From Archangiaceae bacterium (GTDB lineage Bacteria > Myxococcota > Myxococcia > Myxococcales > Myxococcaceae): a stretch of DNA of 17,031 nt. The notes beneath the pieces were generated by a model. It worked only from the letters and a program-made list of their open reading frames with translations. It did not search any database and was not told the origin of the DNA. Positions within the stretch are counted from its first letter, which is position 1; every line of letters starts with the position of its first letter. Location: the NCBI GenBank assembly GCA_043750125.1, contig JAYVCD010000026.1:1-17031 (forward strand), read 5' to 3'. Made by a program: the position numbers and the translations under genes. This document shows positions 1-12,490 of this stretch, piece after piece.

Positions 1-372
1 AACGGAATCCTCCGCCTCCCGCATCCGCTCGTTGACCAGTTGCCGAACCCAGTAGATGTCGGCCCCATCCTGGAAGACGACCGTCACGACCGAAAGGCCG
101 TACTTCGAAATGGACCAAACCTCTGTGGACTTGGGCAGCCCTGCCATCGCCCGCTCTACCGGCACGGTGACGTACTGCTCCACCTCCACTGGCGAAAGCG
201 CCGGCGCAGCGGTGATGATCTGCACCTGAACGTTGGTGACGTCGGGTACGGCGTCGATCGAAAGGTTTGTTGCGGAGCGAACGCCGACGGCGATGAACAA
301 CACCGTCGCCACCAAAACGATTGGGCGATTCTGGAGGGACCACCGGACGATTGCCGAGAAGAAGGTGAGCAT
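1..372 (-). CDS. czcA: CusA/CzcA-family heavy-metal efflux RND permease, N-terminal 124 codons (runs off the window)
   Basis: Not in the ORF track. Manual translation from ATG at 372: MLTFFSAIVRWSLQNRPIVLVATVLFIAVGVRSATNLSIDAVPDVTNVQVQIITAAPALSPVEVEQYVTVPVERAMAGLP...SISKYGLSVVTVVFQDGADIYWVRQLVNERM. DAVPDVTNVQVQ is the CzcA-type N-terminal motif. The start overlaps the adaptor stop (TGATG). Confidence 0.93.
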   Translation of the reverse strand, partial: MLTFFSAIVRWSLQNRPIVLVATVLFIAVGVRSATNLSIDAVPDVTNVQVQIITAAPALSPVEVEQYVTVPVERAMAGLPKSTEVWSISKYGLSVVTVVFQDGADIYWVRQLVNERMREAEDSV

Positions 373-1544
373 CAGTGCTCGTCCTCGGAGAGGGTGGACT
401 TGAGCAGGAGGCTCTTGAGCGTGAAGACCCCCGAGGTAACGACCTCTTCCCCTTCGTCCAATCCGGAGAGCACCTGAACGTGAGCGAGCGCGGCGTCGCC
501 GAGCGTTACCTCGTGAACGACGAAGTCCCCGTCTTTCGCCTTCACGAAGACCACGTTCTTGCTTCCGACCTCAGTCACTGCGGTCCGAGGCACGATGACC
601 TGCAGCGTTGCGCTGCTGGGTTCTGAAACCTCTACGTGAGCTGACCCAAACAATCCCAGACGCAGCCGGAGGTCGTCGTTCTTCAGCCGCACTCTCGCCG
701 TGAGCGTCCGAGCCACGGGGTCGGTCTGCTGGCCAACATATTCGACGACCCCCTCGAAGTGCTCGCTCGGGAATGCGTTGAGCTGCACTTCGCTCTTCGC
801 CCCGACGCGCAAGCGACTCAAGTCCTTCTCGAAGATTCGGCCGAGGAACCATACCTCCGACAGATCCACGATTGTCGCCAGGACGTGCTCAGCGTTGATG
901 GGCTGGCCGACTACCGCGTCTCGCGCAACGACCACACCCGTGATTGGGGCGCGAAGGGGGACCAGGTATCCGCCACCCCCTTCCGCGTTGACGCCAATGG
1001 CACCGAGCTGCTCACCAATCGCCTTGGCCTCGGCCTCCTGGGCATTCGCCTCGGCCTCCGCGTCCAACACCGCCTGCTCTGAGCCCAGCCCGGTCTCCTT
1101 CAGCGATTGCAGCCGGGCCGCATTCGAGCGGGACGCCTTCGCCCGGGCGGACGAAGCTGCATGGGCACCGCGAAGGCGCCCGACATCCGGCACGCGAAGC
1201 AGAGCCATCACGTCGCCCTTCTTCGCGATTGATCCTTCGTTGAACGTGACCTGGTCCAGCCGGCCCGCGGCAGCTGCCGACAAGCGCGCCGTTCGGTCAG
1301 GCTCGGCGGCGATTTCTCCGGGCAAGCTGACGATGGTCGCAAGCACCGCGCGCTTGACAGACTCGGTACGAATTCCAGAGGACACGACCACCTCGTCACT
1401 GACTCGAAGTTGGCGAGGCAGCTCCTCGTGCTCCTTTTCGTCGTGATGGGAATCGGCCGGCTCGCTGTGCGGCGGCTCATGCTCCGCGCACTTGCACCCA
1501 ACCAAGAGCATGGCCCCAAGGGCCGCCGACAAGACGGTTTTCAT
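372..1544 (-). CDS. czcB: RND efflux periplasmic adaptor (membrane fusion protein), CzcB/CusB family, lipoprotein
   Basis: 390 aa. Lipobox-like LLVGC, His/acidic segment (EHEPPHSEPADSHHDEKEHEE), MFP motifs LRAPITGVV, IVDLSEVW, DPVARTLTARV, LSGLDEGEEVVTSG. ATGA overlap with the upstream TolC-family gene. Confidence 0.92.
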   Translation of the reverse strand: MKTVLSAALGAMLLVGCKCAEHEPPHSEPADSHHDEKEHEELPRQLRVSDEVVVSSGIRTESVKRAVLATIVSLPGEIAAEPDRTARLSAAAAGRLDQVTFNEGSIAKKGDVMALLRVPDVGRLRGAHAASSARAKASRSNAARLQSLKETGLGSEQAVLDAEAEANAQEAEAKAIGEQLGAIGVNAEGGGGYLVPLRAPITGVVVARDAVVGQPINAEHVLATIVDLSEVWFLGRIFEKDLSRLRVGAKSEVQLNAFPSEHFEGVVEYVGQQTDPVARTLTARVRLKNDDLRLRLGLFGSAHVEVSEPSSATLQVIVPRTAVTEVGSKNVVFVKAKDGDFVVHEVTLGDAALAHVQVLSGLDEGEEVVTSGVFTLKSLLLKSTLSEDEH

Positions 1545-2806
1545 AGCGAGTCTCCTTCGAGGGAAAGTCCTGCCGCACGGGTCAGCCGCACTGACGCCAA
1601 GCAGAGGGCCTCGCGCGCGTCGATCTCCGCCTTCAACTGCTCGACCAACGCCTGCTGCGCGACCAGTGCATCGCGAACTGGGAGGCGCGCCGCCTTGATC
1701 TGAAGCGCGATGCTCTCGAGGCGGGCGCTTGCACGCTGAGTGCGTTCCCGCGTGTAGAGAACGCGGGCCTTCAGGCTCGCGCCGTACTCGGCGAAGGCGA
1801 CCATCAGCTCGGCTTGCAGCTCTCTGCCAACCCGATCGGCCTCTGCTTTGGCTCTTTCGGTAAAAGCCACGGCCTCGGAGATTTCTCCTGCCTGCGTGCG
1901 CCCAATCGGCTGTGGCAGAGGAATCGGAATGCTCAAAACCACCCCTAGGACTCGTTCATCGAACCCATCGCTCTGCGCAAAGAGGGACAGCGTCGGGTTC
2001 GGCACGCGCGAGCGCCGCAGCAGATCCACGCGACGGGCGAGTACCGCCTGAGCATCTCGAACTGCCAGAAGCTCGGGCCGCTCTCGCCCCACCGCGGTGA
2101 CCGCAGCGACGCTCTTGAGCGGTTCGAGATCGCCAACAACATTCACATCCAGGTCGTCGCCAACGAGAAACCGGAGCTGCGCTTGCCCGACTGCCACCAA
2201 CTCTTCGGCCTTCAGCCGGTCCTGAGCAGCTCGAATCGCGGCGGCATCGGAGACATCGGCGTCAACTTCCGAGGTGAGACCAGCCGCAACCATCCCGCGC
2301 ACGGTCGTTGCTACACCTTCGGTGGCGGCCTCCAGCCTCTCGGTCAGCTTCAGTCGCTCGCGAGCGGCGATCGACCTGAAGTATGCCAACCAGGCGTCCG
2401 CGGCGATTGTCCCCTTCGTGGCGGCGATCCTTTGGACCTGCACGCTCAGCTCCCCTTCAGCAAGATCGAGCCGCAGTCGACGCTGGCCTCCAACCTCAAG
2501 CTCCTGCGCGAGTCCGAGGTTCCAGTTGAGCTTTTGTTCAATCGGATTTGCGCGGGACGCGAGCCCACCCGACAGGACGGGGTTGGACGGCAAGATCGGC
2601 CGCGCTCCTTCGCGCCGACCTTCACCGGCTCGTAGTGAGGCGAGCTGTTCCCTCAGCGCCGGGCTGATCGCCAGCGTACAGGCGATCACGTTGCTCCGAC
2701 TCACTGGGCCAGCGCAGTGAGGTGACACCGGTTCGTCCGCCCAGCTGATGCAGGAAAGCAACAACACGGCGAGCCCGCAGGCCCCCGTCCGAAGAATGGA
2801 TCTCAA
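1541..2806 (-). CDS. czcC: TolC/CzcC-family outer-membrane efflux protein
   Basis: 421 aa. Signal peptide, outer-membrane factor motifs (PSNPVLS, QELEVGGQRRLR, RPEL, PNPTLSL, LSIPIPL). TTG start with GAGG at 2813-2816 just upstream. First gene of a CBA triad. Confidence 0.9.
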   Translation of the reverse strand: MRSILRTGACGLAVLLLSCISWADEPVSPHCAGPVSRSNVIACTLAISPALREQLASLRAGEGRREGARPILPSNPVLSGGLASRANPIEQKLNWNLGLAQELEVGGQRRLRLDLAEGELSVQVQRIAATKGTIAADAWLAYFRSIAARERLKLTERLEAATEGVATTVRGMVAAGLTSEVDADVSDAAAIRAAQDRLKAEELVAVGQAQLRFLVGDDLDVNVVGDLEPLKSVAAVTAVGRERPELLAVRDAQAVLARRVDLLRRSRVPNPTLSLFAQSDGFDERVLGVVLSIPIPLPQPIGRTQAGEISEAVAFTERAKAEADRVGRELQAELMVAFAEYGASLKARVLYTRERTQRASARLESIALQIKAARLPVRDALVAQQALVEQLKAEIDAREALCLASVRLTRAAGLSLEGDSL

Positions 2807-2812
2807 GACACA

Positions 2813-2893
2813 CCTCGCGTGAAGTGAACTGGCTCCAAGCCTGAGCCTGCGGCTCGACTCGAATGCCCTACGGCGGTGAACGGCTACGCGAGG
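2813..2893 (-). promoter_or_regulatory. Putative SD-sequestering RNA structure: anti-SD in the last codons of the upstream small ORF pairs with the czcC ribosome-binding site
   Basis: Perfect 8-bp inverted repeat: + strand cctcgcgt (2813-2820) and acgcgagg (2886-2893). In the mRNA, CCUCGCGU (end of leader ORF) can pair with ACGCGAGG (contains the GAGG SD). Two small inner hairpins (2831-2841, 2843-2855) shorten the loop. Confidence 0.55.
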
Positions 2894-3186
2894 GGAACTA
2901 TCGGGACGTGGAGGATTTCGCCCGGCTCAGGCGACTGGGGCACGGCAAGCAACCGCTCAGGCACTTCCGAGGACCCCGCCGGGAACACTGGCTTGATGTC
3001 CATGGATACGGGCATCAGCCGCAGGTGAGGGCAGCAGACACAGGTTGCGCAGTCAGGAGGACAATTGCCATTTGAGTCATCGTCCGGACACTGCTGCGAA
3101 CAAGCGCTTGCCCCAACGCCACGGGCCTCGCCTGTTGCGAAGGCGACGTAACAGGCCAGCCCAAGAGCAAGAGTGACTCTGATCAT
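2884..3186 (-). CDS. Small Cys-rich exported protein / putative metal-responsive leader peptide (CzcI/CutF/CruR-like in architecture and position)
   Basis: C-terminal 100 aa of track ORF 2884..3948, starting at ATG 3186: hydrophobic signal-like N-terminus MIRVTLALGLACYVAFATGEARG, Cys cluster CSQQCPDDDSNGNCPPDCATCVCCPH, Pro-rich tail PQSPEPGEILHVPIVPLA. Directly upstream of czcC on the same strand. Confidence 0.75.
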   Translation of the reverse strand: MIRVTLALGLACYVAFATGEARGVGASACSQQCPDDDSNGNCPPDCATCVCCPHLRLMPVSMDIKPVFPAGSSEVPERLLAVPQSPEPGEILHVPIVPLA

Positions 3187-3386
3187 TCGCGCGACCCTTA
3201 TCGTTTGCCTTCGCCCCTCGGTCAACTCCGACGCTCCGCCTCGCGCCCGAAGCTCGACCCAACGGGGCGGGCCGTGAGTCGGTTTCCACACGGGCCCATC
3301 AACACTCAACTGCCGCGATCCACCCGCCGTTTGAAGGGAGAAAAAAAAGCGACGCAGCCTCAGCCGGCGAGTAACCCGGCGGGTGC

Positions 3387-4322
3387 CTACCGAAGCTCGG
3401 GGTCGTAGGGCGTGCCCAACGCCGCCGGTGCCGCAGAGGCCGAAGGCTTTCGCGCCGCCAACACTCCCAGCGTCAGCAGGTACGGCAATGCCAGCAGCAC
3501 GCCTTGCGGCACGACTTCCAGCAGCCCGGGGGCTGACGAGGCCAGCCCGATGCGCAGCGCATTTCCAAAAGCGAAGAACGCCGCAGCGCCCGCGGCTCCG
3601 AGCGGCGTCCACCGACCGAACACCATCGCCGCCACCGCCATGAAGCCCAACCCCGCCGGCATGTGGTGCTCGAAGCGATCGAGCGTCGCGGTCGAGAGCG
3701 CCGCTCCTCCCAGGCCGGCCAACATTCCCGAGGCGATCACCGCTGCGAAGCGCAGCGCGTTGACGTTGATTCCCATCGCCGCGACTGCCTGGGGGTTCTC
3801 GCCGACGGCCCGCAGCCGCAGCCCGGTGCGGGTGCGCTGGATGAAGAGGTGCACGCCCCATGGGAGCACCAGCGCAAGCCAGGTCAGCGCGGTGTGCCCC
3901 GACAGGGCGCGCAGCAGCGGAATTCCCTCGAGGAACGAGAAGTTCCACCGCGTCAGCTGGACAATCGAGGGCGTCGCCGACGGTGAGGAAAAGACGGCCT
4001 CGAGCAGAAACGTTCCCAGCGCGAGCATCACCAGGTTCAGCGCCATTCCCGAGACGACCTGGTCGCTTCGCCAGCGAATGCAGAGCCAGCCGTGGATCGC
4101 CGCCACCGCGGCCCCCGCGAGCATTCCCACCCCCACCCCCAGCGGAGTCGGCATCGTCAGGGCCGCCACCGCGGCGGCGAACGCTCCGGCGCGCATCATC
4201 CCTTCGACTCCGACGTTCACCACCCCTGCCCGTTCGGACAAGGTCGCGCCCAGCGCGGCGAAGATCAACGCCGGCGCCGCCTCGAGCGTCGAAGACAGCA
4301 GCGCCTCGAGCAGCGCAATCAC
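3387..4322 (-). CDS. ABC transporter permease, nucleoside/CUT2 type (NupC/YufQ-like)
   Basis: 311 aa, hydrophobic. Motifs SERAGVVNVGVEGMM, DQVVSGMALN, GLRLRAVGENP, GFMAVAAMVFGRW, ALPYLLTL, APAALGTPY. GTGA overlap with the upstream permease. Confidence 0.92.
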   Translation of the reverse strand: MIALLEALLSSTLEAAPALIFAALGATLSERAGVVNVGVEGMMRAGAFAAAVAALTMPTPLGVGVGMLAGAAVAAIHGWLCIRWRSDQVVSGMALNLVMLALGTFLLEAVFSSPSATPSIVQLTRWNFSFLEGIPLLRALSGHTALTWLALVLPWGVHLFIQRTRTGLRLRAVGENPQAVAAMGINVNALRFAAVIASGMLAGLGGAALSTATLDRFEHHMPAGLGFMAVAAMVFGRWTPLGAAGAAAFFAFGNALRIGLASSAPGLLEVVPQGVLLALPYLLTLGVLAARKPSASAAPAALGTPYDPELR

Positions 4323-5401
4323 CCCGCCACCTTCTTCCCCAGCCGCGCCAACAGCTGCACCCAGACGAGCTTTCCGGCCACCAACAGCAGCGCCAGGCCT
4401 TGAATCAGCTCGGGGAAGCTCTTGTGCACTCCGAACAACTGCATTCGCGTTCCCCCTGCGCGCAAGGCTCCGAACAGGGCCGCGCTGGCCAGCACCCCCA
4501 GCGGGTGACCTTGACCGATCAACGCCATCGCGATTCCGTCAAAGCCATACGGAGCCCCCAGCGTCGCGGGGTATTTGTGCTCGGTCCCCAGGACCAGCAC
4601 CGCGCCGGCGAGCCCGGCCAATGCGCCCGAGACCGCCATCGCTTCGAGCATTCGGCGACCCACCTGGATTCCAGCGGCGCGCGCGGCTTCCGGCGCCAGG
4701 CCCACCGCGCGCCACTCGTACCCGCGCCAGGTGCGGCCAAACCAGACGGTCAGCGCGATCGCCGCGCCCAGGGCGAGAAGAAAACCTAGGTTCAGTCGCG
4801 AGTCGGGCCCCAGGAGCAACGGAAGCACCGCGGTGGAAGCGACTTCGTTGGTACCCGAGACCGAGTTGTCTCCACTCGCCACGCCCCGCAGCGGGCCCAC
4901 CACCAACCCATTGTCGATCAGCGCGACGGCGATCCAATTCAACATGATGGTGCTGATGACTTCGTGCACCCCGCGGCGGCGCTTCAGCTCGGCGGCGATC
5001 AACGCGTAGAGCCCACCGCCGATCGCTGCCGCGCTCAGACAGACCGGCAGGTGCAGCAGGCCGGGCAGTGAGAGCGAAGCGCCGCACACCGCCGCCACCA
5101 GAGCGCCGACCATCATCTGCCCCTGCGCGCCGATGTTGAACAACCCCACCCGGAACGCCACCGCCACCGACAGCCCCGTCAGCGTGAGGATCGCCGCCTT
5201 GGTCCCCGCTTCACCCAGCGGGCGCAACAGCACGCTGCTGCTCGCGCCGTCGAAGAAGCGGGGCCAGTCGCCGAACGCGCCCCACACCATCGCCGCGTAG
5301 GCATCGAGCGCGATGCCCAGGCCTCCGCGGGTGAGCGCGATTGCTGCGAAGCACACCGCCAGGGCGGTGACGACTGACAGCACCGAGGGAAGGGCCTTCA
5401 C
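4319..5401 (-). CDS. ABC transporter permease, nucleoside/CUT2 type (NupB/YufP-like)
   Basis: 360 aa. Motifs AFRVGLFNIGAQGQ, HEVISTIMLNWIA, GYEWRAVG, SGALAGLAG, GFDGIAMALIG. GTGA overlap with the ATPase. Confidence 0.92.
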   Translation of the reverse strand: MKALPSVLSVVTALAVCFAAIALTRGGLGIALDAYAAMVWGAFGDWPRFFDGASSSVLLRPLGEAGTKAAILTLTGLSVAVAFRVGLFNIGAQGQMMVGALVAAVCGASLSLPGLLHLPVCLSAAAIGGGLYALIAAELKRRRGVHEVISTIMLNWIAVALIDNGLVVGPLRGVASGDNSVSGTNEVASTAVLPLLLGPDSRLNLGFLLALGAAIALTVWFGRTWRGYEWRAVGLAPEAARAAGIQVGRRMLEAMAVSGALAGLAGAVLVLGTEHKYPATLGAPYGFDGIAMALIGQGHPLGVLASAALFGALRAGGTRMQLFGVHKSFPELIQGLALLLVAGKLVWVQLLARLGKKVAG

Positions 5402-6909
5402 GCTGCGCCCTCGGTGCCCAACATGCGCCGGCCCAGCTGAAGCTCGTCGACCGCTCCGCGCGCAAATTCACCGTTGAGCCGCCCGTCGAACATCACCAGC
5501 ACCCGGTCGGCCAGCGCCAGCACTTCGTCGAGATCCAGCGAAACCAGCAGCACCGCGCAGCCGCCATCGCGCACCCGCCGCAGATGAGCCCGCACCGCTT
5601 CGACCGCCGCCACGTCCAGCCCGCGGGTCGGCTGTACCACCACCAACAGCTTCGGCGCCGCGTCGAGCTCGCGCGCCACCACCAGCTTCTGCTGGTTGCC
5701 TCCCGAGAGGTCTGCCATTCGCTGGCCCGGCTCGCGCGGGCGGACGTCATGCTCTTCGAGCAGCTTCAAGGTGCGGGCGCGACGGCCCGCGAAGTCGACG
5801 AACGGCCCGCGCGCGAACGGCGGCGTGCGATGCCGCCCCAGCGCGACGTTCTCTTCGACGGTGAAGTCCCCGACCATCGCCCGCAGGTGCCGGTCTTCTG
5901 GAATGTGTGCCACCCCGAGCGCGCGGGCCCGATTGGGCGTCAAGGCCGTCAGCCGGGTTCCGCCGATGCTCACTGTTCCGTCCACCCAGGATCGCAGGCC
6001 CACCACCACCTCGGCCAATTCGCGCTGCCCGTTTCCGTCAACTCCGGCGATGCCGACAATCTCGCCCGCAGCGACCTCGAGGCTCACTGTTTTCAGCCCG
6101 CGCGCGATCACCCCACTGAGCACCAGGACGGCCAGGCCCCGAGGGACCGCGCGGGTCTCGGCCGCGTTCAGCAGCACGCCGGCGTCGCTTCCCACCATCA
6201 TTTCCGCCAGCGCCTGCGGCGAGGTCTGCTCTGGCTTCAGCCCGTCGGCGACCTTTTTTCCCCGCCGCATCACCGCAATCCGCGTTGCGAACGCGAGCAC
6301 TTCTTTGAGCTTGTGGGAAATCAACACCACCGTCTTGCCTGAGTCCGACAGCGCCCGGGTCACCGCGAACAGCTCGTCGGCTTCCTGCGGAGTGAGCACC
6401 GCCGTCGGCTCGTCGAGGATCAACGTCGTCGCCCCGCGGTGCAACGCCTTGACGATTTCCACCTTCTGCTGACTGCCCACGCTCAGGGTGTCCACCCGCG
6501 CGTTGGGGTCGAGCGCGAAGCCGAACCGCTTGCACGTCTCGTTCACTTCGCGAACCGCGCGCTGAAGATCCACCCGGCCGCGCAGCAGCGGCTCGGCTCC
6601 GAGCACCACGTTTTCCGCCACGCTCAAAGTCGGCACGAGCGTGAAGTGCTGCTGCACCATTCCCACCCCGCGCTTGAGCGCCTCGCGCGGGCTCTTGAGC
6701 ACCACCGGCGTCTGCCCAAACCGGACCACCCCCGCGTCGGGTTGGTACAGCCCGTAGAGCACGTTCATCAGCGAAGATTTTCCGGCGCCGTTCTCCCCTA
6801 CCAGCCCCAGGCGTTCTCCCGGGTGCAGCTCGAGCGACACGTCGTCGAGCGCACGCGCAGCGCCAAAGCGCTTGGTGATGTGCTCCAGCGAAATGACCCG
6901 AGAGCTCAG
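5398..6909 (-). CDS. ABC transporter ATP-binding protein with two NBDs, nucleoside/CUT2 type (NupA-like); probable CTG start at 6909
   Basis: Walker A GENGAGKS, signature LSVGSQQ, Walker B LILDEPT; second domain has a degenerate Walker A (GVDGNGQRE), LSGGNQQK and QPTRGLD. The track starts at GTG 6840, but the conserved N-terminus ISLEHITKRFGAARALDDVSL continues in frame up to CTG 6909, which overlaps the BMP stop. Confidence 0.9.
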   Translation of the reverse strand: MSSRVISLEHITKRFGAARALDDVSLELHPGERLGLVGENGAGKSSLMNVLYGLYQPDAGVVRFGQTPVVLKSPREALKRGVGMVQQHFTLVPTLSVAENVVLGAEPLLRGRVDLQRAVREVNETCKRFGFALDPNARVDTLSVGSQQKVEIVKALHRGATTLILDEPTAVLTPQEADELFAVTRALSDSGKTVVLISHKLKEVLAFATRIAVMRRGKKVADGLKPEQTSPQALAEMMVGSDAGVLLNAAETRAVPRGLAVLVLSGVIARGLKTVSLEVAAGEIVGIAGVDGNGQRELAEVVVGLRSWVDGTVSIGGTRLTALTPNRARALGVAHIPEDRHLRAMVGDFTVEENVALGRHRTPPFARGPFVDFAGRRARTLKLLEEHDVRPREPGQRMADLSGGNQQKLVVARELDAAPKLLVVVQPTRGLDVAAVEAVRAHLRRVRDGGCAVLLVSLDLDEVLALADRVLVMFDGRLNGEFARGAVDELQLGRRMLGTEGAA

Positions 6910-8042
6910 TGCGCGGCCGGTGCAGCGAAGCTCTCGAGCTCGACGCTGTTGCTGGGAACCTTCAGCGTTCCCGCGACGATCTGCCCCCTGAGCGCGGCGA
7001 CCTTCTCGAGCGCCGAGGCTTTGTCGGGAAAATCGAGCAGCACCGGAGCCAGGGACACCCCTCCCTCTTTGAGCCCCATCACCCGGTCTTCGGCCGAGAA
7101 CTTACCGTCGACCAGATCGCGGCTCGCTTCCCAGACCGCGAGGTCCACCCGCTTCACCATCGAGGTCAACATCGCGTCGGGCGCCAGGTGCGCCTGATCT
7201 GAATCGACTCCAATCGCGAATACTTTTTTGCCGGCGGCGCGGGCTTCTTTCACCGCTTGAATCGCCCCCAGCCCGTCGGAACCCGCTGCCGGAAAGAGGA
7301 TCTCGGCCCCCTTCGCGATCAGGTCCTGCGCGACCTGCTTTCCCGCCGCGACGTTGTCGAAGCTGCCGGTGTAGGTCGCGATCACCACCGCTTTCGGGTT
7401 CGTCGTCTTCACTCCCGCGCGAAAGCCCGCTTCGAATTTCTTGATCAGTGGAATCTCCATTCCGCCGATGAAAGCGACTTTCTCTTTCGCCACCAGCCCG
7501 GCCAGCGCGCCCGCGAGGAAGCTTCCTTCCTCTTCCTTGAACACCACCGTCCGCACGTTCGGCAGCGCCGTCGGCTGGCCTTTGGGGTCGAGAATCGGAG
7601 AGTCGATCAGCAGGAACTTCGCCTTCGGGTTCGCCCTCGCCACCGCCTCGACCGCGTTCTCGAGCATGAAGCCGGTGCCCACCACCAGGTCCGAGCCTTG
7701 ATCCACCAACAGCGAAAGGTTCGGTTGGTAGTCCTCTTGCGCCTTGCTCTGCACCACCAACGGACGAACTCCCAGCGCCTTCACCTGGCTCAACTCTTCC
7801 GGAACGCTCTTCTTCAGCTCGTCCACGGTCAGCGGCTCGTAGCTTCCGCTTTTGAAGCGGGCCCCCGCGGCCCAGGTCTCGAGCCCGCGCAACGCCGAAT
7901 CATTGAACGACTGGTCGCCTCGCCCGCCGATGTCCGTCACCAACCCGACCGTCTTCTTCAGGCTCGGCGGCGCCGGGTCCGATTTTTTGCAGCCGCAAAA
8001 TGTCACGAGCGCGACGACACACCAGAGCGGACGGTTGGTCAT
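6906..8042 (-). CDS. BMP-family (PnrA/TmpC-like) ABC substrate-binding lipoprotein, probably nucleoside-binding
   Basis: 378 aa. Lipobox-like TFCGC; BMP motifs GGRGDQSFND, FKEEEGSFLAG, FIGGMEIPLIKKFEAGF, IGVDSDQ, TSMVKRVD, GLKEGGV. Confidence 0.93.
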   Translation of the reverse strand: MTNRPLWCVVALVTFCGCKKSDPAPPSLKKTVGLVTDIGGRGDQSFNDSALRGLETWAAGARFKSGSYEPLTVDELKKSVPEELSQVKALGVRPLVVQSKAQEDYQPNLSLLVDQGSDLVVGTGFMLENAVEAVARANPKAKFLLIDSPILDPKGQPTALPNVRTVVFKEEEGSFLAGALAGLVAKEKVAFIGGMEIPLIKKFEAGFRAGVKTTNPKAVVIATYTGSFDNVAAGKQVAQDLIAKGAEILFPAAGSDGLGAIQAVKEARAAGKKVFAIGVDSDQAHLAPDAMLTSMVKRVDLAVWEASRDLVDGKFSAEDRVMGLKEGGVSLAPVLLDFPDKASALEKVAALRGQIVAGTLKVPSNSVELESFAAPAAH

Positions 8043-8372: not shown

Positions 8373-8475
8373 ATAATCCGGCAAACTATTACCCCAGTCT
8401 TTAAATACCCGAACTCCGGACACCTACCGTGGCATCAACGATAGCGGTCACGGAATGCGGCACGCCACAGAGCCC

Positions 8476-9494
8476 ATGCAGTGTCTTGACGAACAGGCCC
8501 TGCGCGCTGTTCTGCTCGGCACCGCTTCGGTCGATGATCTCGAAGAAATAGAACAACACGTCGACGTCTGCCCGACTTGCCGTCGCCTCGCCGCAGCCGT
8601 CGTTCGTTCCAGCCCCAACCCTCTGGAAACCGCCAGTGAAGGCTTGCCCAGCCCGTCACTGCTCTCGTCTGGCGACGCCGTTGGACGGTACGTCGTCATC
8701 GAGCTCATCGGCCCCGGCGCGATGTCCGTCGTCTATGCCGCCTATGACCCCGAGCTCGACCGCAAGATCTCACTCAAGCTGCTGCGCGCAGACGTCGAAG
8801 GAGCTCTGGGGAGGGCGCCGCCGCTCGTCTCACCACCGAAGCCCTGGCCATGGCTCGCCTTTCCCACCCCAATGTCGCCGTCGTTCACGACGGAGGCAGC
8901 TTCAGAGGCCAACTGTTCCTCGCGATGGAATACGTCGCCGGCACCGACAAGCCCTTCGCAGACGCGATGTTTCGCGCCAGCGCACAAAGCCTCGACCTCG
9001 CCTCAGCCCGTTGGACCCAGACCTACCGCGAGGTGTGTGAAGCCACCTGGCTGCTCGGCGAGCAATCCGAAGAGCTGCTCGATCTGCGCATGGCCTGCCT
9101 CGAAAACCGTCGCACCGCGATGCGCGCACTCACCACCACCCTCGCCTCTGCCGACGCAACCGTGGTCGAGCGCGCGCTGGGCGCCGCAGCCGAAGAGACG
9201 TTGGTTCGCGCGATCGGTTTTGCAGAGGAAGCAGAGGCTACCCGCAGCGGCGCTCAGGCCTGGATCAACCTCGTCTTCGTTCAGGGTTACCTGTTGGCCC
9301 ACGTCCCCGAGCCCCACCGTTCGCAGATCGTCGCGCGCGCCATGCTGCATCGCATGGGACCCGATCTCGATCTCGAAGCCGAGCTCGAGAACGCCAACGC
9401 CACCACCCTTCGCACCGAAGGTCGCTCTCGCTTCGCCAAAGTGCGCGGGGCGCAGTGGGAAGGTCAACGCAAAGGGCCCGGCAAAGGGGATTGA
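8476..9494 (+). pseudogene. Decayed zf-HC2 zinc finger + Ser/Thr protein kinase + TPR-type gene (one frameshift, apparent internal deletions, 3' truncation)
   Basis: ATG 8476: CLDEQALR...HVDVCPTC (HxxxCxxC), then GRYVVIELIGPGAMSVVYAAYDPELDRKISLKLL (kinase subdomains I-II). A 1-nt shift near GGGG 8808-8811 gives ARLTTEALAMARLSHPNVAVVHD...LAMEYVAGT. The catalytic HRD/DFG lobe is absent; the frame jumps to the post-membrane segment CEAT...GEQSEELLDLRMACL typical of myxobacterial kinase-TPR proteins. Confidence 0.85.
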
Positions 9495-9537
9495 GAGCGG
9501 CGGTTCACCGCGTCTTGGACTAAATGGGCCGGTTCAC

Positions 9538-10842
9538 ATGCGTCCTTACGAATTGATCAAAGCCAAGCGCGATGGGCTGGCGCTTTCCCCTGACGACATC
9601 CGCGCGTTCCTCGACGGCTACACCCAGGGCTCGGTGCCCGACTACCAGATGGCCGCGATGTGCATGGCGATCTTCTTCAAGGGCTTGAATGACGTGGAAC
9701 TCGGAGCCTGGGCCCGCGCGATGCTCGAGTCCGGTGAAGTGCTGGATCTCTCGGACACGCCCGGGATCAAGGTCGACAAACACTCGACCGGAGGCGTGGG
9801 AGACAAGGTCTCGCTCTCGTTGGCTCCACTGGCTGCAGCGTGCGGAGTTCCGGTGCCGATGATTTCTGGCCGGGGCCTGGGTCACACCGGCGGCACGCTC
9901 GACAAGCTCGAGTCCATTCCCGGCTTCCGGGTCGACCTCAGTGTCCCGGAATATCGCCGCCTGGTCCGCGAAGTCGGAATGTGTCTGATTGGTCAGACCG
10001 CCACCCTCGCGCCCGCGGACAAGAAGCTCTACGCGCTGCGCGATGTCACCGCGACCGTCGACTGCATTCCGCTGATCGCTTCGTCGATCATGAGCAAGAA
10101 GCTGGCGGAAGGAATCGACGCGCTCGTGCTCGATGTGAAAGTCGGCAGTGGCGCGTTCATGAAAACGATTGAAAACGCACGCACGCTCGCTCAGACGATG
10201 ATTGCGATCGGGACCCAGATGGGCAAACGCGTCACCGCATTGCTCACCGACATGGACCAGCCCCTCGGGCGCACCGTGGGCAACGCACTCGAAGTGATCG
10301 AAGCCGTCGAGATGCTGCGCGGCAAAGCGCCCGCCGATTACACCGAGGTCACCCTGGCGCTCACCGCACAGATGTTGGTGCTGGGCGGGAAGGCGAAGAA
10401 TGAGACCGAGGCGCGGGCTCGGCTGCAGATGGTGATCGCCGACGGGTCGGCTGAGAAGAAATTGCAGCAGCTCGTCGCAGCCCAGGGCGGGGATCCCGCG
10501 GCCATCGCAGACCTGTCTCGACTTCCGCGCGCGAGATCGACGGTGGAGATCCTCTCGTCCGCGCGAGGCTTCGTGGCGGGCATCGACTCAGAGGCGATCG
10601 GGCTGGCCGCGATGGTGCTCGGCGCGGGCCGGGAAAAGTCGACCGATCTGATCGACCCCGCCGTCGGCTTCGTCCTCGAGCGGAAAGTCGGAGACGCGGT
10701 GGTGGTCGGTGAACCGCTGGTCACCGTTCATTACAACTCCGAGGCCCACCTGGCCGAGGTCAAGGCCAGGGTCTTGAAGGCCTACCGAATCGGCGCAGCG
10801 GCCCCCGCGAAGAGGCCGCTGATTCTCGAGCGACTCGGCTGA
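9538..10842 (+). CDS. pdp: Pyrimidine-nucleoside / thymidine phosphorylase
   Basis: Real start is ATG 9538 (MRPYELIKAKRDG), 434 aa. Motifs VPDYQMAA, DKHSTGGVGDK, SGRGLGHTGGTLDKLESIPG, LRDVTATV, SIMSKKLAEG, DVKVGSGAFMK, LGAGR, IDPAVG. Confidence 0.96.
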   Translation: MRPYELIKAKRDGLALSPDDIRAFLDGYTQGSVPDYQMAAMCMAIFFKGLNDVELGAWARAMLESGEVLDLSDTPGIKVDKHSTGGVGDKVSLSLAPLAAACGVPVPMISGRGLGHTGGTLDKLESIPGFRVDLSVPEYRRLVREVGMCLIGQTATLAPADKKLYALRDVTATVDCIPLIASSIMSKKLAEGIDALVLDVKVGSGAFMKTIENARTLAQTMIAIGTQMGKRVTALLTDMDQPLGRTVGNALEVIEAVEMLRGKAPADYTEVTLALTAQMLVLGGKAKNETEARARLQMVIADGSAEKKLQQLVAAQGGDPAAIADLSRLPRARSTVEILSSARGFVAGIDSEAIGLAAMVLGAGREKSTDLIDPAVGFVLERKVGDAVVVGEPLVTVHYNSEAHLAEVKARVLKAYRIGAAAPAKRPLILERLG

Positions 10843-10846
10843 GGAT

Positions 10847-12490
10847 TTACGGCGTGGGGTCGTAGCAGGCGTCTGCCTGGCACGTGTTGGCTGCGGAGCA
10901 CGTCAGGTGGTTCGCACACTGCAGGCCACCGGCGCAGCTCGCCCCGGCGCTGACCTTCGCCGCGCAGAACCCCGCGTTGCAGAAGAGCCCGTTGGCGCAC
11001 TCTTCCAGATTGCTCGCGAGGCAGGCGGCTCCGACAGTCTTCTGAATTGCGCAGGTTCCACGGGTTGTCGGAACCGCGTTCGGAGTGCAGTACAGCCCCG
11101 ATTTGCAGTTGAAATAGTACCAACACTGCTGACCTGCGGCGGAAGGGGGGCTGCAGGTACCAGGACCATTGGCGGTGGCGGAGTTGCAGAAGAGATCGTC
11201 AGCGCAGCGAACCGAAGGGCTGGCATTGCAGACACTCCCAACTGCCGCGCGAGCCGCGCAGACGCCATTGCTGCAGAGGTTGGGAGCGGCGCATTCGAGC
11301 TCGGACGCACAGCTGGTTCCGCTGCCCTTCTTCGCGACGCAGGTGTTGGAAGCGTTGCAATAGTTGTTGGCAACGCAAGTTTGCTGCTGAGTGAGGGGCG
11401 CGATGGCAGCGCACGAGCTTCCAGCGGCTACCGGCGCTCTGCACGACGCACTACTCACCCCGTTGATGGAGCCGTAACCATAGATGTAGAGGCCTGCCTG
11501 GCACTCGCGCGGGTCAAGCCCCGTAGCGCTGACTCCGACTGCCTTCCTCGGCTGACAGGACCCGGGACAGCTCGTCACGCTATCGAGGCAATATGAAGCG
11601 GTGCTGCATTCGAAGTTGGCGTAACAAGTTCCCCCGTTGGCGACGTTGCCGATCTGGAACCCTTGGCAATCCACGTCCGTGTCGAATTCGGGCGCGGTGC
11701 AGCTGAAGCTCGTCGCATATTTGTTGAGGCAACGTTGAGCGGCTGCACCATCAAACGTCATCCGACCGTCTTTGATGGCTGGCCTTTCCTGATAGCCCAA
11801 ACCCGTGACAAAGCGACCGAGGTAGTCGGCGCAGGAGGACTCGGTGGCAGTCAGACCGCACCGTGTTTCGTACGCGCAAACCTTGGACAAGATGGTTGCG
11901 TTGAACGCGTCATAGGCCGCAACGCCGCCGCCCGTTCCAGTGCCGCCGCCCGTTCCAGTGCCGCCGCCCGTTCCAGTGCCGCCGCCCGTTCCAGTGCCGC
12001 CGCCGGTTCCAGTGCCGCCGCCCGTTCCAACGCCGCCGCCGGTTCCAGTTCCTCCGCCCGTTCCAACGCCGCCGCCGGTTCCAGTGCCGCCACCGGTTCC
12101 AACGCCGCCGCCGGTTCCAGTGCCGCCACCGGTTCCAACGCCGCCACCGGTTCCAGTTCCGCCGCCGGTTCCAGTTCCGCCGCCGGTTCCAGTTCCGCCG
12201 CCGGTTCCACTGCCGCCGCCGCTGCCCGCGACGCACGCACCGCTTGAGCACACGTTGCCAGCGGTACACGCCTGACAGGCCACGCCCGCGTTGCCGCAGG
12301 TCGAACTGGCCTGCAGTCGGCAGGTTCCCGTCGAATCACAACATCCCGTCGCGCACGAGACCGCGTCACAGGGGGACGGAGGATGGCCGCACGCCGAAAG
12401 CAGCGACAGCAAGGACCCTGCGAAGAGCACCAGGCCTCTGCCTGAACGCAACGCAACCACGATCGAACCTTCGATTTCGCCACTTCGCAT
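10847..12490 (-). CDS. Cys-rich surface lipoprotein with a Gly/Thr repeat linker and tandem four-Cys modules
   Basis: 547 aa (alternative GTG start at 12460). Lipobox LLSAC, 10-Cys N-terminal module, (GGG[T/V/S]GT)16 linker, then 38 Cys, mostly in G-x-x-C...C...C...C modules; 49 Cys by manual count. Confidence 0.85.
   Translation of the reverse strand: MRSGEIEGSIVVALRSGRGLVLFAGSLLSLLSACGHPPSPCDAVSCATGCCDSTGTCRLQASSTCGNAGVACQACTAGNVCSSGACVAGSGGGSGTGGGTGTGGGTGTGGGTGTGGGVGTGGGTGTGGGVGTGGGTGTGGGVGTGGGTGTGGGVGTGGGTGTGGGTGTGGGTGTGGGTGTGGGTGTGGGVAAYDAFNATILSKVCAYETRCGLTATESSCADYLGRFVTGLGYQERPAIKDGRMTFDGAAAQRCLNKYATSFSCTAPEFDTDVDCQGFQIGNVANGGTCYANFECSTASYCLDSVTSCPGSCQPRKAVGVSATGLDPRECQAGLYIYGYGSINGVSSASCRAPVAAGSSCAAIAPLTQQQTCVANNYCNASNTCVAKKGSGTSCASELECAAPNLCSNGVCAARAAVGSVCNASPSVRCADDLFCNSATANGPGTCSPPSAAGQQCWYYFNCKSGLYCTPNAVPTTRGTCAIQKTVGAACLASNLEECANGLFCNAGFCAAKVSAGASCAGGLQCANHLTCSAANTCQADACYDPTP
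11921..12220. repeat. Coding tandem repeat: 16 full 18-nt units plus a 12-nt partial unit
   Basis: + strand unit [c/g]gttcc-[agt/aac/act]-gccgccgcc with synonymous variants, full units 11933-12220. Encodes GGGTGT/GGGVGT on the minus strand. Confidence 0.97.

Follow-up and report, generated by a model that had tools for sequence, protein, structure and literature searches.

A conserved small gene ahead of a CzcCBA-type efflux operon in Archangiaceae encodes a candidate metal-sensing, pausing leader peptide

The leader gene and its operon

Control of metal efflux pumps is usually ascribed to two-component systems, MerR/ArsR regulators or extracytoplasmic function (ECF) sigma factors. Here we describe a small gene that heads a pump operon in a 17,031-nucleotide (nt) stretch of DNA from an Archangiaceae bacterium (contig JAYVCD010000026.1, assembly GCA_043750125.1; "the window" throughout). 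On the minus strand at one end of the window lie genes for an outer-membrane efflux protein (OEP), a periplasmic adaptor and a resistance-nodulation-division (RND) pump. Directly upstream of the OEP gene is an open reading frame (ORF) of 100 codons that had not been called as a gene. We refer to this ORF as the leader and to its product as P0001; its parts, and those of the operon, are collected in Table 1.

An initial annotation, made from the sequence of the window, had described this uncalled ORF, its Cys cluster, its ILHVP tail free of RAPP and RGPP motifs, and the gap to a downstream gene with a TTG start; it had also pointed out that the last 8 nt of the ORF complement the Shine-Dalgarno (SD) region of that gene. 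Reading the minus strand and its translations confirmed every one of these coordinates. A 77-nt spacer (2883-2807) separates the TAG of the leader from the TTG of the OEP gene at 2806-2804, and CCUCGCGU (2893-2886), here called the anti-SD, is the exact complement of ACGCGAGG (2820-2813). The Pro codon of HVP occupies 2904-2902, and the anti-SD begins 11 nt later.

P0001 starts with MIRVTLALGLACYVAFATGEA and ends with PEPGEILHVPIVPLA; read directly, its tail, EILHVPIVPLA, contains no RAPP, RGPP or PP. Cysteines occur at positions 29, 33, 42, 46, 49, 51 and 52, the cluster ending in CATCVCCPH, and an additional one, C12, lies in the hydrophobic N-terminus. AlphaFold2 (AF2) placed a helix over residues 2-18, and homologues bear the UniRef name 'Secreted protein'. 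From 46 sequences, AF2 gave no confident fold of P0001 beyond this N-terminal helix (mean predicted local distance difference test score 67.8, predicted template modelling score 0.27).

Table 1. Coordinates of the leader, its parts and the pump operon in the window.
Feature	Position	Strand	Description
Leader gene (P0001)	2884..3186	-	100 codons; ATG 3186-3184, TAG stop 2886-2884 included
Signal-peptide-like N-terminus	3124..3186	-	about residues 1-21: R3, then a hydrophobic run
Putative metal-binding cluster, C29 to H54	3025..3102	-	C29-x3-C-x-DDD-x2-G-x-C-x3-C-x2-C-x-CC-x-H54
Linker, residues 55-82	2941..3024	-	sequence poorly conserved, length fixed
C-terminal segment P83-Q-S-P-E-P-G-E-I-L-H-V-P95	2902..2940	-	13 residues, conserved; candidate arrest/pause peptide
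ATA (Ile96)	2899..2901	-	very rare codon immediately 3' of the Pro95 codon
Anti-SD CCUCGCGU	2886..2893	-	end of Pro98, Leu99, Ala100 and first stop base
Intergenic hairpin within the tail/SD helix	2831..2867	-	in minimum free energy and centroid folds
ACGCGAGG	2813..2820	-	SD (GAGG 2816-2813) and 5' flank; partner of the anti-SD
OEP gene (CzcC/TolC-like)	1541..2806	-	421 amino acids, TTG 2806-2804; Pfam OEP, E 1.7e-14
Periplasmic adaptor gene (CzcB/CusB-like)	372..1544	-	HlyD_D23, E 4.9e-35; TIGR01730 above cut-off
RND pump gene, start	1..372	-	truncated by contig end; ACR_tran; TIGR00914 CusA/CzcA best NCBIfam model
-35-like hexamer GTTGAC	3221..3226	-	distance conserved in the window clade (WIN, L020, L021, L022, L049)
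-10-like hexamer GATAAG	3197..3202	-	18 nt after the -35-like hexamer, 10 nt before the ATG

A large family with a constant plan

Size alone does not mark out the leader, as 78 ORFs of at least 80 amino acids lie within 17 kb. Length and motifs are conserved among homologues, so the leader ORF is a real gene, and it belongs to a large unannotated family. A word-indexed search returned five homologues of P0001 at 47-82% identity, four of them 100 amino acids long and one 121, and matches were found in 14 of 61 related genomes. Scanning one genome per species gave 30 leader loci, from Myxococcaceae, Archangiaceae, unclassified Myxococcales and one 'uncultured delta proteobacterium' metagenome-assembled genome; the carriers include named strains of Pyxidicoccus, Archangium, Myxococcus and Corallococcus. 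When 1.84 billion cluster representatives were searched with a profile, 988 proteins were found at E ≤ 1e-3 and 225 at E ≤ 1e-10, nearly all of about 100 amino acids, and public records name homologues 'hypothetical protein', 'Uncharacterized protein' or 'Secreted protein'.

P0001 had no match in Pfam (E ≤ 0.01) or in NCBIfam. The Pfam model for DUF2946, PF11162, matched none of 15 family members at E ≤ 10, and a six-frame search with it at the same threshold through G000, the genome that holds the window, left the window untouched. With the same model, none of 21 family f1 genomes gave a match, and among 151 genomes of Myxococcota 3 did so, all weakly. The nearest clusters in the ESM Atlas are unnamed, Myxococcota and Acidobacteriota being the commonest phyla, apart from a lead to DUF6660 (0.95) that comes from the Atlas only; the Pfam scan of the 15 members gave no DUF6660 match.

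The plan of the family is constant: a basic and then hydrophobic N-terminus, a Cys cluster, a linker and a conserved tail, an arrangement that agrees with nascent-chain sensors already known. In alignments A1 and A3 the residues C29, C33, D35-37, G40, C42, C46, C49, C51, C52 and H54 are invariant, and three CXXC or CXXXC pairs (C29-x3-C33, C42-x3-C46 and C46-x2-C49) fall inside this putative metal-binding cluster. P83, S85, P86 and I91-P95 are likewise invariant in alignment A1, and the tail consensus is PxSPEPx(D/E)I(L/F)HVP(K/I/R). Among 148 representatives whose tails we examined (139 of the HVP type and 9 of a PP type described below), the motif reads HVP in 115 and HIP in 14, the Pro is followed by K in 86, by I in 29 and by R in 28, and exactly five residues come after the Pro in 95. 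Thus both the Cys cluster and the (I)LHVP motif extend far beyond the genome of the window, in the alignments, in the 30 loci and in the metagenome representatives.

The distance from one motif to the other is fixed, as it is in CruR, where it measures 45 residues (PMC9426467). From CCxH to the Pro there are 41-42 residues in 31 of 32 loci, and from the last Cys to the Pro 43-44 in 112 of the 139 HVP-type representatives and 43-45 in all 9 of the PP type; shorter values are due to stray Cys residues in the linker. At one locus, L049:5001-5309 (protein P0047), a His-rich stretch (HGSHEGAHGHHPHHGSDH...HPHVH) replaces the Cys cluster while the tail, SPEPGDILHVPKAPLA, is retained, and the tail/SD helix discussed below is predicted there too (P 0.98). 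Because the tail survives this exchange of His for Cys, we regard it as a module of its own.

Linkage to pump genes is equally consistent. Of 39 metagenome loci, 37 have an OEP gene next after the leader, and the remaining two have an adaptor gene and a TonB-dependent receptor gene, respectively; all 6 of the genome loci scanned have the OEP gene there as well, which bears out the position before an RND outer-membrane gene given in the initial annotation. An adaptor and a pump follow the OEP gene in L027 and L034; in the other four genome loci, the scan covered the pump only. The RND fragment in the window (124 amino acids) matches TIGR00914 at E 5.6e-40, necessarily below the cut-off of that model, and the full-length pumps of two related loci exceed it (818 and 1151 bits against 701).

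Complementarity of the leader tail and the downstream SD

The helix between anti-SD and SD is present in both the minimum free energy and centroid folds of positions 2790-2920. Compared with 1000 random 21-mers from the same locus, the tail/SD duplex of the window has an energy rank of 0.034. We extended the comparison to a genome set of 33 leader loci (3168 codons), many of which are close kin. Here the mean predicted probability that the SD core pairs within the final 18 nt of the ORF is 0.71, and it is at least 0.7 at 24 loci, as against a mean of 0.065 when the tail is replaced by random 48-mers from the same loci; at 21 of the 33 loci, none of 25 random sequences matched the observed pairing. 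In a second, independent set of 50 metagenome loci, the mean pairing probability was 0.46 versus 0.11 for random sequences, and at 23 loci none of 15 random sequences equalled the observed value.

Complementarity also tracks across loci. When tails and SD regions were permuted among 27 distinct genome combinations, 0 of 2000 permutations were as complementary as the cognate pairs, and the same count was obtained for 48 distinct metagenome combinations. In the latter, the mean energy was -13.5 for cognate and -11.6 ± 0.3 for permuted pairs, and the mean longest helix 7.19 and 6.35 ± 0.14, respectively. The longest helices have 10 bp, and on either side of GAGG the bases vary jointly with the codons before CTC GCG: GCUCCUCGCG with CGCGAGGAGC, CCCCUGG with CCAGGGG and, in the metagenome set, UCCUCUG with CAGAGGA. 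The heptamer CGCGAGG is widely conserved 5' of the OEP start.

Other results weigh against control of the pump through this helix. Although the helix is found where the initial annotation had predicted it, positions 2790-2920 as a whole fold no more stably than shuffled sequences (z -0.41). The compensatory change for which it had proposed a test likewise appears in the permutation tests and not in column-wise covariation, which is not significant (74.5% paired versus 73.1% after shuffling, with 48 of 500 shuffles as high), nor in RNAalifold, which gave no consensus structure for the 33-locus alignment. Both permutation tests ignore relatedness. The SD is mostly paired even with random tails, and raw duplex energy, with a median rank of 0.41, is unremarkable against random 21-mers at 28 of the 33 loci. 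Just 25 of the 50 metagenome loci have a predicted helix (P ≥ 0.5), and some clades have no tail/SD complement (L156, L159, L161 and L162). When the tail is masked, here as far as +15 from a ribosome that holds Pro95 in its P site, the mean predicted opening energy of the ribosome-binding site (RBS) falls from 9.6 to 6.9 kcal/mol (9.3 to 7.3 in the window), a modest change, and the gain reaches 3 kcal at only 10 of 33 loci. Rfam had no match over positions 2600-3500 at E ≤ 1.

These data also bear on whether the ORF might be a chance one, or a conserved gene of unrelated function that sits beside the pump, its complement being nothing but Pro-Leu-Ala codons meeting a GAGG SD in GC-rich DNA. 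In a genome of 65% GC long ORFs are indeed plentiful and CCUC/GAGG pairing arises easily, and the weak column-wise covariation fits as well. Yet length and motifs are conserved in hundreds of clusters, the OEP gene comes next at all but two of the 39 metagenome loci, and cognate tail/SD pairs outdo permuted ones, and we consider this explanation very improbable.

For loci with long spacers we tried an attenuator-like model of four segments and rejected it, as the folds show simple nesting instead, the tail with the SD and the inner segments with each other. Such loci (for example L028:5222-5328 and L050) carry an element, GGGAG(G/A)(G/C)GUGUG(C/U)CC, 20-45 nt 3' of the stop codon; it resembles the real RBS of the window (GAGGUGUGUCUUG, 2804-2818) and forms the 5' arm of the inner hairpin.

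A rare codon after the tail proline, and a paralogous family

In the 33 genome loci, the codon that follows HVP is ATA in 24, AAA in 5, ATC in 2, AGA in 1 and AAG in 1. All 24 ATA codons of these ORFs fall on this single position, and the nearby Ile91 is encoded by ATC or ATT at all 33 loci, never by ATA. Counted over 1439 long ORFs of G000 with high GC content at third codon positions, Ile is encoded by ATA in 0.4% of cases, Arg by AGA in 1.4%, Thr by ACA in 1.7% and Lys by AAA in 20%. At 78 metagenome loci the same position holds AAG in 60, AAA in 8, ATA in 6 and ATC in 4; with the common AAG dominating, the rare codon is a trait of Myxococcaceae lineages and not of the whole family. As reasons for the ATA and AAA codons, we discarded a +1-frame TAG inside ATAG and a slippery site, CCCAAAG, each being absent from some of the variants.

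A paralogous family, the PP type, was examined at 29 loci (L050-L078; for example L050, G031:C9:296099-299395). Its members are of about 100 amino acids, with a signal peptide of the form MQxLLRxLAVLLVLxTGGVFQTLAFAS, a Cys cluster that ends in CxCCPLR and the tail DIFQPPRA*, and they occur in 61 of 208 genomes of the same family (60 of 207 without the unpublished genome G161). A gene 130-176 nt downstream of these ORFs encodes a secreted protein that bears Cys/His motifs of the CEHGVQKSLCTRCNP type. The codon after the Pro is the rare AGA at 26 of the 29 loci, with one AGG, one CGA and one ACA (Thr), and the two Pro codons of the tail use all four synonyms. A tail/SD helix is predicted at 2 of the 29 loci, a further point against a general role for that helix. 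In 11 of the 29 loci, rare A-N-A codons also cluster at a second fixed position, 44 codons ahead of the stop.

The spacers of these paralogues are relevant to a different output for the same sensor, one modelled on CruR. A paused ribosome would shield the transcript from Rho, release of the pause would lead to intergenic termination, and transcription rather than the SD would be controlled. For CruR the mechanism has been demonstrated, with an intergenic region of 162 nt (PMC9426467). Averaged over the 33 loci, the intergenic region is 96 nt long and rich in C (C 0.39, G 0.31), and the PP-type paralogues have their 130-176 nt spacers and mostly no predicted helix. Against this, the 77-nt spacer of the window is not C-rich (C 0.31, G 0.32) and is largely structured, and the tail/SD complementarity that tracks across loci is something the Rho model does not need; we judge this output improbable.

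A more serious contender, though in our estimate an unlikely one, is that P0001 serves the pump as a stable, metal-binding accessory protein, either periplasmic or anchored in the membrane, and acts as a chaperone or a trans-acting sensor (compare CzcI). In that case ILHVPK would serve in docking or processing, and the helix of tail and SD would provide no more than ordinary translational coupling. Conservation of cluster and tail at the protein level across 988 representatives is what such a protein would show, as is strict co-location with pump genes; the wider family mostly has Lys after the Pro, encoded by the common AAG, which fits constraint on the peptide, and the predicted switch energy is modest. 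CzcI itself has been called a suggested metal-sensing regulator (PMC9973294). An accessory protein is harder to reconcile with the lack of a confident AF2 fold, with a linker that keeps its length and not its sequence, and with a tail that survives the His-for-Cys exchange of L049. Nor does it account readily for the position after the Pro, where Ile, Lys and Arg are chemically unlike yet all have A-N-A/G codons, and where ATA and AGA are retained against strong codon bias in two paralogous lineages. Should the product prove to be such a stable periplasmic protein, it would be an unannotated, widespread fourth component of RND metal pumps.

Proposed mechanism

Our preferred reading, to which we give an even chance of being right, is that the leader is the first cistron of the pump operon and a cis-acting, metal-sensing pausing leader of the CutF/CruR kind. 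The computational tests proposed in the initial annotation for the most part favour it, and we regard that interpretation as partly supported. The N-terminus would direct the nascent chain into the Sec channel. With the ribosome at ...SPEPGEILHVP and the rare ATA next, about 43 residues would lie between the peptidyl transferase centre and the last Cys, and the Cys/Asp/His cluster would just be emerging on the periplasmic side. Metal binding to the cluster would alter the dwell time of the ribosome at HVP-ATA. A ribosome there, or at the stop codon five codons on, would cover CCUCGCGU, which could otherwise pair with ACGCGAGG and hide the SD of the weakly initiating (TTG) outer-membrane gene; a longer dwell would therefore mean more pump.

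We regard the leader gene itself, its architecture and its association with the pump as well established. That the product is exported, binds metal and pauses the ribosome in cis is inferred, as is the sign of the response. Beyond the results on the helix, several points lower our confidence in the pausing leader. Translation, stalling, export and metal binding are all read from sequence, which does not yield the sign of the response, so that metal might lengthen or shorten the pause. The AAG of most metagenome loci counts on the same side, and, with 988 representatives, the family is not only myxobacterial in size. The Pro motif of CutF did not stall ribosomes in a LepB reporter (PMC9973294), so a motif alone proves little. 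In a survey from the same paper, what CutF-like proteins precede most frequently is an OEP gene of an RND system, and the concept of such ORFs before RND OEP genes is therefore already in print.

More tentatively still, and at somewhat less than an even chance, we suggest a broader proposition: that a large family of Sec-exported nascent-chain metal sensors, of about a thousand 50%-identity clusters and invisible to Pfam, with a new arrest motif, (D/E)I(L/F)HVP(K/I/R), gates heavy-metal RND pumps directly at the level of translation, with no transcription factor dedicated to them, the pause in Myxococcaceae being reinforced by a rare AUA or AGA codon in the A site.

To our knowledge, only two metal-sensing leader peptides that act within the ribosome-translocon complex have been studied, CutF and CruR, and both are DUF2946 proteins that respond to copper. 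If our proposal is correct, the leader family would extend nascent-chain metal sensing to CzcCBA-type pumps and supply another, unrelated sequence family whose pause motif differs, in which a peptide motif is combined with a rare codon. If the broader proposition holds, ribosome-coupled sensing of periplasmic metal would be a common, convergently evolved means of controlling efflux pumps in soil bacteria. Members of the leader family occur in culturable species.

Promoter and surrounding genes

The -10-like hexamer is conserved in the window clade 10 nt before the ATG, which argues for a very short or absent 5' leader and suggests that the leader is the first cistron on a nearly leaderless transcript. 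In the Corallococcus/Myxococcus clade TGCTAGAAG, and in the clades other than the window's cgTGCTAGAAg, lies 9-10 nt before a GTG start. A simple scan of positions 2700-3500 for consensus promoters and terminators called no promoter, the GTTGAC/GATAAG pair included; it returned one terminator-like site, inside the OEP gene, at the rate expected by chance.

Genes upstream of the leader vary between loci. No metal-type regulator is consistently linked at 9 related loci, in keeping with the absence of one nearby that the initial annotation had noted; what comes closest is a LysR gene and hybrid kinases on the upstream side and, beyond a cation diffusion facilitator (CDF) gene in G008, an ArsR-rhodanese gene. 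The genome G008 holds locus L082 (G008:C1:4252000-4268000), in which a leader with the tail DELLKVPRTSQR is followed by an OEP, an adaptor, an RND pump and a CDF (Cation_efflux) transporter. In transmembrane helix 4, the pumps of the window's closest relatives and of G008 carry the signature DFG..DGA..VEN, and one Corallococcus pump carries AVG..DAA..VEN; four others had no match to the pattern. The RND genes of L020, L080 and L082 contain DFGLLVDGAVIIVEN and that of L034 (Corallococcus) AVGLLVDAAIIVVEN, which we assume to mark pumps for divalent and monovalent metals, respectively.

Further upstream on the same strand, a nucleoside-type ATP-binding cassette operon (PnrA-type) spans 3387-8042, ending at 3387. 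Divergent from it, at 8455-10842 on the plus strand, is a 795-aa ORF in which an N-terminal part of about 360 residues (weak zf-HC2 match, E 0.0039) is joined to complete thymidine/pyrimidine-nucleoside phosphorylase domains. On the minus strand at 10847-12490, a 547-aa ORF has a weak Dickkopf_N-like, Cys-rich match (E 4.8e-5), just below cut-off.

Comparison with known systems

Among the papers listed by literature searches, no title or abstract opening described such a leader ORF in myxobacteria; 'Myxococc' is absent from the text of PMC9973294, and HVP from that of Fujiwara et al. 2024 (PMC10987492).

CutF of Rhodobacter capsulatus stalls at a Pro-rich motif on periplasmic copper, and the stall melts a stem-loop over the cutO RBS (Ozturk et al. 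2023, PMC9973294; Ozturk et al. 2025, preprint 10.1101/2025.02.05.636593). The leader resembles it in being a small ORF, predicted to be exported, with a Cys motif and a conserved, Pro-containing C-terminal motif, placed directly upstream of a metal-detoxification gene whose RBS is predicted to be hidden in an mRNA helix. CutF works only in cis, as the leader probably does. The two differ in sequence family, CutF being DUF2946-like and the leader having no PF11162 match; in the tail, which in the leader is (D/E)I(L/F)HVP(K/I/R) with no PP; and in the cluster, a 7-Cys/DDD/His arrangement in the leader and CXXXC in CutF. Moreover, the anti-SD in the window is the end of the leader ORF itself, Myxococcaceae leaders have a rare codon after the Pro, and the target is a CzcCBA-type pump rather than a multicopper oxidase. 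Of the four properties used in the published filter for CutF-like proteins (PMC9973294), the leader has three; it has no PP within the last 15 residues, and the filter would therefore drop it. The PP-type paralogues would pass.

CzcI, which occupies a similar place in czcICBA of Cupriavidus metallidurans, is CutF-like without the C-terminal Pro motif and has a suggested role as a metal-sensing regulator (PMC9973294). Compared by position and description alone, it shares with the leader a small ORF directly upstream of a czcC or czcC-like gene; it is said to lack the tail, which is the most conserved part of the leader family.

CruR (Bp2923) of Bordetella pertussis is an exported DUF2946 upstream ORF in which the 45-residue spacing between CXXC and RAPP is conserved within 1-2 residues; copper relieves the arrest, and Rho then terminates transcription before the next gene (Roy et al. 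2022, PMC9426467). Like it, the leader is an upstream ORF, with predicted export, that heads a metal operon and carries its motif a few residues before the stop, and both keep a fixed distance from Cys to C-terminal motif (45 there and 43-44 here), a similarity we regard as analogous and not as homology. CruR differs in having RAPP, encoded by frequent codons, and in its downstream gene, a TonB-dependent importer repressed by copper.

Arrest peptides that monitor Sec and YidC (SecM, ApdA/ApdP and the RQH family) precede secA, secDF or yidC, and what they sense is translocation activity, not metal (PMC10987492). They share with the leader an N-terminal export signal and a C-terminal motif that ends in Pro near the stop, at which arrest in the leader would occur. 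One of them, a QAPP peptide from Myxococcales encoded upstream of secA, arrests in vitro (PMC10987492), and its motif is similar to the tail IFQPP of the PP-type paralogues.

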